64,000 bases of DNA from Escherichia coli. Its GTDB lineage: Bacteria > Pseudomonadota > Gammaproteobacteria > Enterobacterales > Enterobacteriaceae. Shown in pieces: positions 39,920 through 43,931 of the stretch (positions within the stretch are counted from its first letter, which is position 1; every line of letters begins with the position of its first letter). The notes below the pieces were generated by a model. That model was not told the DNA's origin. It made no database searches and saw nothing but the letters and a program-made list of their open reading frames with translations. Position numbers and translations under genes: made by a program. The stretch lies in the NCBI RefSeq assembly GCF_003334765.1, contig NZ_QOWT01000023.1. One strand, written 5' to 3'.

Positions 39920-42196
39920 ATGCTCAATCAAGAACTGGAACTCAGTTTAAATATGGCTTTCGCCAGAGCGCGCGAGCACCGTCATGAGTTTATGACCGTC
40001 GAGCACTTGTTACTGGCGCTGCTCAGTAACCCATCTGCCCGGGAGGCGCTGGAAGCGTGTTCTGTGGATTTGGTTGCGCTCCGTCAGGAACTGGAAGCCT
40101 TTATTGAACAAACCACACCCGTTCTGCCTGCCAGTGAAGAGGAGCGCGACACACAGCCGACGCTGAGTTTTCAGCGTGTACTGCAACGTGCGGTCTTCCA
40201 TGTCCAGTCCTCCGGTCGCAATGAGGTTACCGGTGCAAACGTTCTGGTCGCTATCTTTAGCGAACAGGAGTCGCAGGCGGCATATCTGTTGCGTAAACAT
40301 GAAGTCAGCCGTCTCGATGTGGTGAACTTTATCTCTCATGGCACGCGTAAAGACGAGCCGACACAGTCTTCTGATCCTGGCAGCCAGCCAAACAGCGAAG
40401 AACAAGCTGGTGGGGAGGAACGTATGGAGAATTTCACGACGAACCTGAATCAGCTTGCGCGCGTGGGCGGAATCGACCCACTGATTGGTCGTGAGAAGGA
40501 GCTGGAGCGTGCTATTCAGGTTCTCTGCCGTCGCCGTAAAAACAACCCGCTGCTGGTGGGGGAATCTGGTGTCGGTAAAACCGCGATTGCGGAAGGTCTT
40601 GCCTGGCGAATTGTTCAGGGCGATGTGCCGGAAGTGATGGCTGACTGTACGATTTACTCTCTCGATATCGGTTCTCTGTTAGCGGGCACAAAATATCGCG
40701 GCGACTTTGAAAAACGTTTTAAAGCGTTGCTCAAGCAGCTGGAGCAGGACACTAACAGCATCCTGTTTATTGATGAGATCCACACCATTATCGGTGCGGG
40801 TGCAGCGTCTGGTGGTCAGGTCGATGCGGCTAACCTAATCAAACCGTTGCTCTCCAGCGGTAAAATTCGTGTAATTGGTTCGACAACCTATCAGGAGTTC
40901 AGCAACATTTTCGAGAAAGACCGTGCTCTGGCGCGTCGCTTCCAGAAAATTGATATTACTGAACCGTCGATCGAAGAAACTGTTCAAATCATCAATGGCC
41001 TGAAACCGAAGTATGAAGCGCACCACGACGTGCGTTATACCGCAAAAGCGGTGCGTGCGGCGGTAGAGCTGGCGGTGAAATACATTAACGATCGTCATCT
41101 GCCGGATAAAGCCATTGATGTTATCGACGAAGCGGGCGCTCGCGCACGCCTGATGCCGGTAAGCAAACGCAAGAAAACCGTTAATGTGGCGGATATTGAG
41201 TCCGTGGTGGCCCGTATTGCACGCATTCCAGAGAAGAGTGTTTCTCAGAGTGATCGTGATACCCTGAAAAACCTCGGCGATCGCTTGAAAATGCTGGTCT
41301 TCGGTCAGGATAAAGCCATTGAGGCGCTGACTGAAGCCATTAAGATGGCGCGTGCAGGTTTAGGTCACGAACATAAACCGGTTGGTTCGTTCCTGTTTGC
41401 CGGCCCTACCGGGGTCGGGAAAACAGAGGTGACGGTACAGCTTTCGAAAGCTTTGGGCATTGAGCTTCTGCGCTTTGATATGTCCGAGTATATGGAACGC
41501 CATACCGTCAGCCGTCTTATTGGTGCGCCTCCGGGATACGTTGGTTTTGATCAGGGCGGTTTGCTGACTGATGCGGTCATCAAGCATCCACATGCGGTGC
41601 TGCTGCTGGACGAAATCGAGAAAGCGCACCCGGACGTGTTCAATATTCTGTTGCAGGTGATGGATAACGGTACGCTGACCGATAACAACGGACGCAAAGC
41701 AGACTTCCGTAACGTGGTGCTGGTGATGACCACCAACGCCGGGGTACGGGAAACTGAGCGCAAATCCATTGGTCTTATCCACCAGGATAACAGCACCGAT
41801 GCGATGGAAGAGATCAAGAAGATCTTTACACCGGAATTCCGTAACCGTCTCGACAACATTATCTGGTTTGATCATCTGTCAACCGACGTGATCCATCAGG
41901 TGGTGGATAAATTCATCGTCGAGTTGCAGGTTCAGCTGGATCAGAAAGGTGTTTCTCTGGAAGTGAGCCAGGAAGCGCGTAACTGGCTGGCCGAGAAAGG
42001 TTACGACCGGGCAATGGGCGCTCGTCCGATGGCGCGTGTCATCCAGGACAACCTGAAAAAACCGCTCGCCAACGAACTGCTGTTTGGTTCGCTGGTGGAC
42101 GGCGGTCAGGTCACCGTCGCGCTGGATAAAGAGAAAAATGAGCTGACTTACGGATTCCAGAGTGCACAAAAGCACAAGGCGGAAGCAGCGCATTAA
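39920..42196 (+). CDS. clpA: ATP-dependent Clp protease ATPase subunit ClpA
   Basis: 758-aa product starting [20 protein letters not shown], two AAA+ modules ([16 protein letters not shown]). Confidence 0.96.
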
Positions 42197-42221
42197 TCTG
42201 ATTGTTAGGTAGGTTGGTCAA

Positions 42222-42256
42222 GTCCGTAATCTCGAAAGAGGTTACGGACTTTTTGT
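42222..42256 (+). terminator. rho-independent terminator of clpA
   Basis: Stem gtccgtaacc with gaaa-type loop, followed by tttttgtttat. Confidence 0.7.
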
Positions 42257-42408
42257 TTATGGGGTGGAGGAGGTTCAGACCCTTTTTTTAATGATGATGG
42301 TAAGTTGTTGATAATTAGTGCTGCGGGAAGGTAAGGATAAAAAAGGGTGCTGCAGGAGAATGGGATGGTTTTGCTTTATTAACAACGGGCTAAACGTGTA
42401 GTATTTGA

Positions 42409-42496
42409 GTTCACTGCCGTACAGGCAGCTTAGAAATTCACAGGTAACATACTCCACCCGCCCACCATGTTCACTGCCGTACAGACAGATAAAATG
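42409..42496 (+). CRISPR. type I-F CRISPR remnant: two repeats and one 32-bp spacer, no cas genes in window
   Basis: Repeat 1 gttcactgccgtacaggcagcttagaaa (42409-42436) is the 28-bp E. coli/Yersinia subtype I-F repeat. Spacer ttcacaggtaacatactccacccgcccaccat (42437-42468). Repeat 2 gttcactgccgtacagacagataaaatg (42469-42496) is degenerate at its 3' end. Confidence 0.85.
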
Positions 42497-42540
42497 CGAA
42501 AAAAAAGCTCGCACTTTCGTACGAGCTCTTCTTTAAATAT

Positions 42541-42554
42541 GGCGGTGAGGGGGA
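42541..42554 (-). other. tRNA-Ser (serW) 3'-end fragment = island attachment-site core copy; no intact tRNA here
   Basis: tggcggtgaggggg is the reverse complement of the last 14 nt (incl. CCA) of E. coli tRNA-Ser(GGA). It sits exactly where the serW 3' end is expected, about 344 bp after clpA. The tRNA body is replaced by island DNA. Confidence 0.5.
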
Positions 42555-42713: not shown

Positions 42714-43931
42714 ATGGCAGTTTTGACGGATACTAAAGCAAGGCATATCAAACCTGATGACAAACCATTGCCCCATGGGGGAATTACAGGACTGACTCTT
42801 CATCCTTCTTCAGTAAAAGGGCGGGGTAAATGGGTTTTTCGTTATGTAAGTCCGGTGACACAAAAAAGGCGTAATGCTGGATTGGGAACTTATCCTGAGG
42901 TCAGTATTGCTGAAGCTGCACGTGCTGCCCGGATAATGCGAGAGCAACTTGCTGCAGGTGATGACCCACTGGAGATTAAAAAGGCTGAAGCTGAAAAAGT
43001 TGTTATCCCAACATTTGCCGATGCAGCCAGGCGTGTACATGCTGAATTGTCACCGGGATGGGAAAATCCAAAGCATGTCAGGCAGTGGTTATCGACGCTT
43101 GAAAATTACGCGTTTCCTCAACTGGGAGCAAAAACGCTGGATTCGATTACGGCTGCGGACGTGGCAGAAACACTGCGTCCAGTCTGGTTAACCTTGTCAG
43201 AAACGGCAAGCCGGGTTAAACAGCGCATTCATGTTGTTATGCAGTGGGGATGGGCGCACGGTTTTTGTGTGGCAAACCCTGTTGATGTGGTTGGCCATTT
43301 GCTTCCTCAGCAGACAAGAGGACGTGATGAACACCAACCCGCAATGCCCTGGAGGCAGTTACCGCTTTTTGTGGCGACCAGTGTGTATACAGATGAACCT
43401 TATAATGTTACCCGGGCACTGTTATTAATGGTGATACTTACAGCAACCCGCTCGGGCGAAGCCAGGGGAATGCGCTGGGCTGAAATTGATTTTCATAAGC
43501 GGATATGGACTATACCCGCAGAAAGAATGAAAGCCAGGATACAGCATCGTGTTCCTTTATCCCGGCAGGCCATTCACATTCTGGAAAATATACGTGGTTT
43601 GCATGATGAACTAGTGTTTCCTTCTCCCAGAAAGCAGCAGATCCTTTCAGATATGGTGTTGACGAGTTTTCTGCGTAAAAAGAAAGCCATCAGTGATATA
43701 CCGGGGCGAGTTGCCACGGCACATGGTTTTCGCTCAACATTCAGGGACTGGTGTAGTGAACAGGGGTATTCGCGGGATCTGGCGGAAAGGGCGCTCGCTC
43801 ATACGCTGAAAAATAAGGTTGAGGCGGCATATCATCGTACTGATCTACTGGAGCAGCGTGTACCGATGATGCAGGCATGGGCGGATTATGTGATGTCTCA
43901 ACTTGCTAAAAACACTAAGGAATTCGCTTAG
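42714..43931 (+). CDS. P4-family tyrosine integrase
   Basis: 405-aa ORF with N-terminal MAVLTDTKARHIKPDDKPLPHGGITGLTLHP and C-terminal catalytic region (...AHGFRSTFRDW...RALAHTLKNKVEAAYHRTDLLEQRVPMMQAW) typical of tRNA-site phage integrases. Confidence 0.9.
   Translation: MAVLTDTKARHIKPDDKPLPHGGITGLTLHPSSVKGRGKWVFRYVSPVTQKRRNAGLGTYPEVSIAEAARAARIMREQLAAGDDPLEIKKAEAEKVVIPTFADAARRVHAELSPGWENPKHVRQWLSTLENYAFPQLGAKTLDSITAADVAETLRPVWLTLSETASRVKQRIHVVMQWGWAHGFCVANPVDVVGHLLPQQTRGRDEHQPAMPWRQLPLFVATSVYTDEPYNVTRALLLMVILTATRSGEARGMRWAEIDFHKRIWTIPAERMKARIQHRVPLSRQAIHILENIRGLHDELVFPSPRKQQILSDMVLTSFLRKKKAISDIPGRVATAHGFRSTFRDWCSEQGYSRDLAERALAHTLKNKVEAAYHRTDLLEQRVPMMQAWADYVMSQLAKNTKEFA

Follow-up and report, generated by a model that had tools for sequence, protein, structure and literature searches.

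The element at positions 42409-42496 of the window, by which we mean the whole 64,000-nucleotide stretch of DNA analysed here, is the known orphan type I-F CRISPR array of E. coli in its K-12 allele. It consists of a leader, one perfect repeat, one spacer directed against cas1f and a degenerate terminal repeat. Established here are its identity, the lack of cas genes in the window, the match of the spacer to cas1f beside a PAM and the pattern across the species. Very probably, the array is a latent anti-cas guide that turns incoming I-F Cas proteins on the DNA encoding them. Both its nature and its proposed role were already known: they were published in 2010, and the anti-cas idea was reportedly tested experimentally by Almendros et al. 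in 2016. What this analysis adds is the anti-cas1f spacer of this allele with its PAM, a stem mutation in the terminal repeat besides the degenerate tail, and the placement of the neighbouring island as a serW insertion that left the array untouched.

Structure and setting of the array

Repeat 1 (42409-42436, plus strand; GTTCACTGCCGTACAGGCAGCTTAGAAA) shows no deviation from the 28-nt E. coli type I-F repeat. It is followed by the 32-nt anti-cas1f spacer (42437-42468, plus strand; TTCACAGGTAACATACTCCACCCGCCCACCAT) and by repeat 2, the terminal repeat (42469-42496, plus strand; GTTCACTGCCGTACAGACAGATAAAATG), which gives a repeat period of 60 nt from start to start. The initial annotation, made from the sequence alone, had described two I-F repeats and one 32-bp spacer, and this description was borne out. 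Repeat 1 matched the Rfam model CRISPR-DR4 over its full length with 50.1 bits (E = 8.5e-9; gathering score 35 bits) and was identical, at 28/28 positions, to the repeats on either side of the cas operon of the I-F system in E. coli LF82. A search of the 64-kb window for the 20-nt repeat core, allowing up to 3 mismatches, returned these two copies only, where 100 dinucleotide-preserving shuffles gave an expectation of 0, and type I-E repeats were absent from the same 64 kb. Several features by which a type I-F array is recognized were found, namely an I-F consensus repeat, a 32-nt spacer on a 60-nt period and a leader homologous to that of a cas-associated array.

The two repeats differ in their capacity to fold. 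Repeat 1 contains the Cas6f hairpin CUGCC-GUACA-GGCAG at 42414-42428 (5-bp stem, 5-nt loop; predicted fold -8.6 kcal/mol), and its last 8 nt (CUUAGAAA) would form the 5' handle of the crRNA. Repeat 2 matches repeat 1 at 19/20 core positions, the sole core change being G17A inside the hairpin stem, and its last 8 nt are degenerate (ATAAAATG). The 3' degeneracy of the second repeat, already noticed in the initial annotation, is thus real and is accompanied by a stem change. The latter introduces a C-A mismatch and leaves a predicted fold of -1.4 kcal/mol, which is as weak as that of shuffled sequence (z-score near 0).

The array sits in a conserved chromosomal context. Positions 4619-42553 of the window are 99.97% identical to K-12 DH10B, from rybB via ybjL to clpA and 14 nt of serW, and the clpA-serW intergenic region (42197-42553) is 100% identical to E. 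coli K-12, array included. The clpA gene (39920-42196, plus strand, stop codon at 42194-42196) was taken from the list of open reading frames and is collinear with the PGAP-annotated clpA of K-12 DH10B (99.97%), which ends at the matching base. Downstream of it, the terminator scan detected the intrinsic clpA terminator, a hairpin with a T-run (42220-42251, plus strand; 14 pairs, TTTTGTTTATG tail), which was also found as an inverted repeat and which separates the array from clpA transcription. The A/T-rich CRISPR4.1-type leader follows (42252-42408, plus strand). It aligns end to end with the CRISPR4.1 leader of LF82 and is identical to the leader of the cas-positive strain ATCC 43896. Among 12 strains its last ~45 nt are nearly invariant; 163/228 columns of the leader region are invariant among the strains sampled, and repeat 1 is invariant in all of them. 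A consensus scan of the leader (42252-42408) gave no clear sigma-70 promoter, and inspection by eye gave weak candidates only; array expression is therefore taken from the literature.

Some further features of the intergenic region were recorded. Across strains it is more variable than the repeats: in one strain the leader contains 17 consecutive G, against 3-6 in others, and in some strains an RtT-like repeat element is inserted between the array and serW (643-777 and 643-778 of two fetched sequences). A 12/14 complementarity between the leader (42262-42275) and the spacer (42446-42459) was rejected as chance, being within the range of other background inverted repeats. The array carries no PGAP annotation at all in K-12 DH10B and EC2. 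In strain GMM076, PGAP places a 'hypothetical protein' (WP_012602745.1, minus strand) across a three-spacer orphan array (3118-3516 of the fetched sequence), which is probably a spurious open reading frame.

On the other side of the array, 2 nt past the terminal repeat, lies the intrinsic serW terminator (42499-42534, minus strand; hairpin and T8 in the terminator scan), with homology to what follows tRNA-Ser in LF82 and K-12. It is followed by the last 14 nt of the tRNA-Ser gene serW (42540-42553, minus strand; TGGCGGTGAGGGGG), at the left junction of the island. K-12 identity ends at 42553, and the island runs from 42554, 14 nt inside annotated serW. Its first gene encodes a tyrosine integrase (42714-43931, plus strand), with an NCBIfam integrase domain at E = 2.5e-55 and the PGAP name 'tyrosine-type recombinase/integrase' in EC2. 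Since the island starts 14 nt inside serW, the integration target is serW and not the array, which lies 43 nt from the island junction and was untouched by the insertion. The initial annotation had regarded the array as marking an integration hotspot next to the island; the adjacency holds, but the hotspot is serW. ARAGORN found no tRNA genes in the 64-kb window, so the rest of serW lies beyond position 64000; the far end of the island is likewise outside the window.

Blastn with the LF82 operon found no I-F cas genes in the 64-kb window, the sole match being the spacer itself. The left part of the window consists of K-12 core genes, and the right part is the island, in close relatives of which no cas genes are annotated. 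The array is therefore an orphan, at least within 64 kb, in agreement with the earlier statement that the window has no cas genes. The canonical I-F cas slot between the array and serW is empty. The location was also correctly given in the initial annotation as the clpA-infA locus of cas-less E. coli. The I-F system sits between clpA and infA, and the single short array of cas-less strains is named CRISPR4.1-2 (PMC3903273); the same array is CRISPR3, or 'anti-CRISPR', in Touchon & Rocha 2010 (PMC2886076). The clpA-serW intergenic region was matched in 5424/5426 complete E. coli genomes.

Other mobile elements surround this locus. In close relatives, the island (42554-64000) encodes a DUF3987 protein, a TOTE conflict-system primase, the serine-protease autotransporter EspI and many IS elements. 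In NCTC9082, the best match to the whole island, the same island adjoins ycdU and not serW. In the island of the window Rfam also identifies two directly adjacent sRNAs, STnc100 and STnc490, as well as a group II intron D1-D4 domain (55373-55717, 56423-56593), and related islands have an annotated group II intron reverse transcriptase (ltrA). At the opposite end, positions 1-4618 are missing from K-12; they hold a P2-like phage tail region, with a tape measure gene at 1188-2666 followed by gpU-like and gpD-like open reading frames, which ends beside the sRNA gene rybB (Rfam RybB; 4632-4710). This region looks like the end of a prophage at a second integration site in the window. Strain E200086 carries a phage-satellite-like element between yljB and clpS, 3.7 kb upstream of the array (876-10293 of the fetched sequence), that encodes an integrase, a primase, a major capsid protein, a head decoration protein and a small terminase. 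The yljB-clpS site is thus a further insertion site in the neighbourhood of the array.

The spacer target and its distribution

The spacer is the reverse complement of nt 98-129 of LF82 cas1f (codons for NGGRVEYVTSE), on the antisense strand. It matches LF82 cas1f at 30/32 positions, with mismatches at positions 4 and 6, and BLAST against the 28 Gb of 5426 complete E. coli genomes gave this match, seen in genomes with I-F cas genes, E = 8e-5. In the 24-kb LF82 locus no shuffled spacer exceeded 21/32. The cas1f of ATCC 43896 is matched at 29/32. A closer target was found by scanning one genome per species for CC followed by the protospacer with the three variable positions left free, which returned 1 match, in E69 (CP089930.1; CC-TTCACTGGTAACATACTCCACCCGCCCACCAT, at 922-955 of the fetched sequence). 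Here 31/32 positions agree, the sole mismatch being at position 6. The cas1f of E69 has 92% nucleotide identity and 311/328 identical amino acids to that of LF82, and it adjoins a 37-repeat I-F array. In LF82, ATCC 43896 and E69, CC lies directly 5' of the protospacer on the spacer-identical strand; the E. coli I-F PAM is CC, or GG when given for the opposite strand and the leader-proximal side (PMC3506596).

E69 cas1f is a perfect target, with CC, for the version of the spacer found in O157:H7. As a candidate source of the anti-cas1f spacer it is preferable to the E. coli B2 alleles. Type I effector complexes flip out every sixth spacer base, which stays unpaired, so the spacer of the window is effectively a full match to E69-type cas1f. 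Against LF82-type cas1f it has a seed mismatch at position 4. Under the established I-F rules, this position-4 mismatch to both groups of E. coli cas1f alleles favours priming over direct interference.

The BLAST check of the spacer proposed at the outset yielded the E. coli cas1f match, phage and plasmid matches that carry no meaning, and no self-target in the window, where a second match at up to 3 mismatches was absent. A phage origin was rejected, the only phage match being 17 nt, exact, in phage Lw1 (E = 3), which is chance. A plasmid origin was likewise set aside: the only match, 22/25 in a Vitreoscilla plasmid (E = 9), lies inside the cas1f of that plasmid, and while it fits a conserved cas1f segment, it is not significant alone.

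Seven other cas-less versions of the locus carry one, two or three spacers, flanked by the same repeats and in the same register. The sampled orphan arrays contain nine distinct spacers, that of the window and K-12 plus eight other 32-mers. All nine match LF82 I-F cas genes at 29-31/32, and every protospacer has a 5' CC; three of the spacers target cas1f, three cas3f, two csy3 and one cas6f. The initial annotation had named as a refuting observation that the spacer is simply part of a longer conserved non-CRISPR sequence. The comparison gave the opposite outcome: the slot holds unrelated 32-mers in other strains, which makes the sequence a CRISPR spacer, exchangeable as a module, rather than a piece of some longer conserved block.

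Species-wide counts set the array against its target. An array with the anti-cas1f spacer is present in 2321/5426 genomes, and the spacer is perfect in 1433. The cas1f gene itself occurs in 241/5426 genomes (all 244 cas1f places are chromosomal), which leaves 95.6% of genomes without an I-F partner. By nucleotide identity to LF82 cas1f the alleles fall into two groups, 201 genomes at 99% or more and 40 at 95-99%, the sampled divergent allele of ATCC 43896 being at 96.2%. In the three strains examined (LF82, ATCC 43896 and E69), cas1f follows an array, and in the first two it lies downstream of clpA. At most 4 of the 5426 genomes have two places matching the spacer, so spacer and target almost never coexist. 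These four may have both an anti-cas1f spacer and cas1f itself, a self-targeting combination, or may carry a duplicated locus.

The terminal repeat has a distribution of its own. The exact terminal repeat of the window, with G17A, occurs in at least 2693/5426 genomes, together with different spacers. It is common to the anti-cas1f array of K-12 and the anti-cas3f array of O104:H4, while other lineages, including O157:H7, keep G17. Since roughly half of the species carries it, next to differing spacers, the change is old and tolerated. Sharing of G17A between arrays with different spacers suggests an older multi-spacer array from which different lineages may have lost different spacers.

A proposed latent guide against incoming cas genes

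For transcription, processing and interference by the array, the proposed mechanism draws on inference and on the literature. The array would be transcribed from its own leader and would be inert alone, because the cell lacks I-F Cas proteins. Should DNA with an I-F cas operon enter the cell and be expressed, Cas6f would cleave the transcript at the repeat hairpins to give one crRNA, made of the CUUAGAAA handle, the 32-nt spacer and the 20-nt hairpin. The Csy complex would load this crRNA and bind cas1f on the incoming DNA beside the CC PAM. Cas2/3 would then degrade the incoming DNA and prime more spacer uptake, and the I-F system would fail to establish. Such a role was proposed by Touchon & Rocha (2010), who found a cas-less array with spacers matching Cas1, Cas3 and Csy2, named it anti-CRISPR and suggested that it blocks invasion by elements with a working system (PMC2886076). 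According to reviews by the discoverers (PMC8616872, PMC5972030; both citing Almendros et al. 2016), native orphan arrays are constitutively expressed, and plasmids with I-F cas genes meet interference and priming from them. The initial annotation had called the array a remnant. It is indeed the known array of cas-less strains, but a spacer that targets cas1f beside a CC PAM, the anti-cas arrangement already published, makes it more than a remnant.

Alternatively, the array could be an inert fossil, the leftover of a lost I-F system that persists by inertia and, in this allele, is unable to make a working crRNA. Decay of this kind would fit the terminal hairpin weakened by G17A, the position-4 seed mismatch to the common E. 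coli cas1f alleles, the leader without promoter consensus and the large majority of genomes that have no I-F partner. It would also fit position 6 of the spacer, where the difference from the likely source allele would change Ser AGT to Cys TGT in cas1f and therefore looks like drift in the spacer. This change falls, however, on the one seed-region base that type I effectors leave unpaired, and G17A, as noted, is an old change tolerated in about half of the species. Inertia also accounts poorly for the retention of the array in essentially all cas-less genomes, for a repeat 1 that is unchanged in all sampled strains while the upstream leader varies, and for sampled spacers that are all anti-cas with the correct PAM. 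Interference by native orphan arrays is, moreover, on record (PMC8616872, PMC5972030). We consider an inert fossil unlikely. A more radical doubt, that the locus is not CRISPR at all, the repeats having been duplicated by chance or belonging to a longer intergenic or REP-like element that is conserved, draws on there being two copies only, as two-copy repeats often arise by chance, and on the RtT-like element nearby in some strains. With no match expected in shuffled sequence, a full-length match to CRISPR-DR4, exact identity to the repeats of cas-linked arrays, and unrelated 32-mers swapped into the slot of other strains, some of which have two- or three-spacer arrays at the site, we regard it as extremely improbable.

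A third account concerns origin only and would hold whether or not the array works today. An ancestor whose I-F system was functional may have taken up spacers against its own cas genes, and the resulting autoimmunity would have selected for deletion of the operon, an idea attributed to Diez-Villasenor et al. 2010 (PMC2886076). The PAM is the one expected if the spacers were genuinely acquired by an I-F system, the CRISPR4.1 leader is kept at the place where, in LF82, it adjoins cas1f, and the gap between the array and the serW terminator is the exact place of the operon in LF82. The best source allele is, on the other hand, the divergent cas1f of E69, at 92% nucleotide identity to LF82, and not an E. 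coli B2 allele. Such a self-targeting scar is possible but somewhat doubtful.

The preferred reading remains the latent anti-cas guide, and within it the function of this particular allele deserves separate comment. On structural grounds, the stem weakened by G17A may impair the 3' cut and the retention of Cas6f on the crRNA. Taken further, G17A may stop Cas6f from cutting or holding the terminal repeat, so that the widespread allele would be functionally dead or would yield a non-canonical crRNA with a long 3' tail; we think this rather improbable. If it were true, the I-F barrier would be real only in lineages with an intact terminal repeat, such as O157:H7. In a weaker variant of the same reading, orphan I-F arrays may serve not for defence but to guide incoming I-F3 CRISPR-associated transposons.

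The array has value for annotation, as it marks the empty I-F cas slot of the strain and places the left edge of the serW island at 42554. It also predicts that the strain would resist acquiring an I-F CRISPR-Cas system.

Comparison with LF82, K-12 and O157:H7

The complete I-F locus of LF82 reads, in order, clpA, leader, CRISPR4.1 (9 spacers), cas1f, cas3f, csy1, csy2, csy3, cas6f, serW, a further leader, CRISPR4.2 (22 spacers) and infA. The window is collinear with it at 98.3% up to 42436, the last base of repeat 1, and again from the serW terminator (42501-42553). Both share the chromosomal slot, the leader, the 28-nt repeat, 32-nt spacers and terminal repeats that are degenerate in their last 8 nt. 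They differ in content: LF82 has six cas genes and 9 + 22 spacers, none of which matches its own cas genes, whereas the window has no cas genes, no CRISPR4.2 in view and a single spacer, which targets the cas1f of LF82.

The orphan array of K-12, between clpA and serW, is identical to that of the window throughout: leader, repeat 1, spacer and the terminal repeat with its G17A. The difference lies downstream, where serW of the window is split by the island 14 nt from its 3' end and an integrase gene follows the array instead of serW-infA. Orphan arrays of the O157:H7 type have the same architecture and a spacer of the same anti-cas1f family, but they carry T at spacer position 6 and an intact terminal hairpin with G17. 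Compared with O157:H7, the allele of the window has both derived changes, the one at spacer position 6 and G17A.
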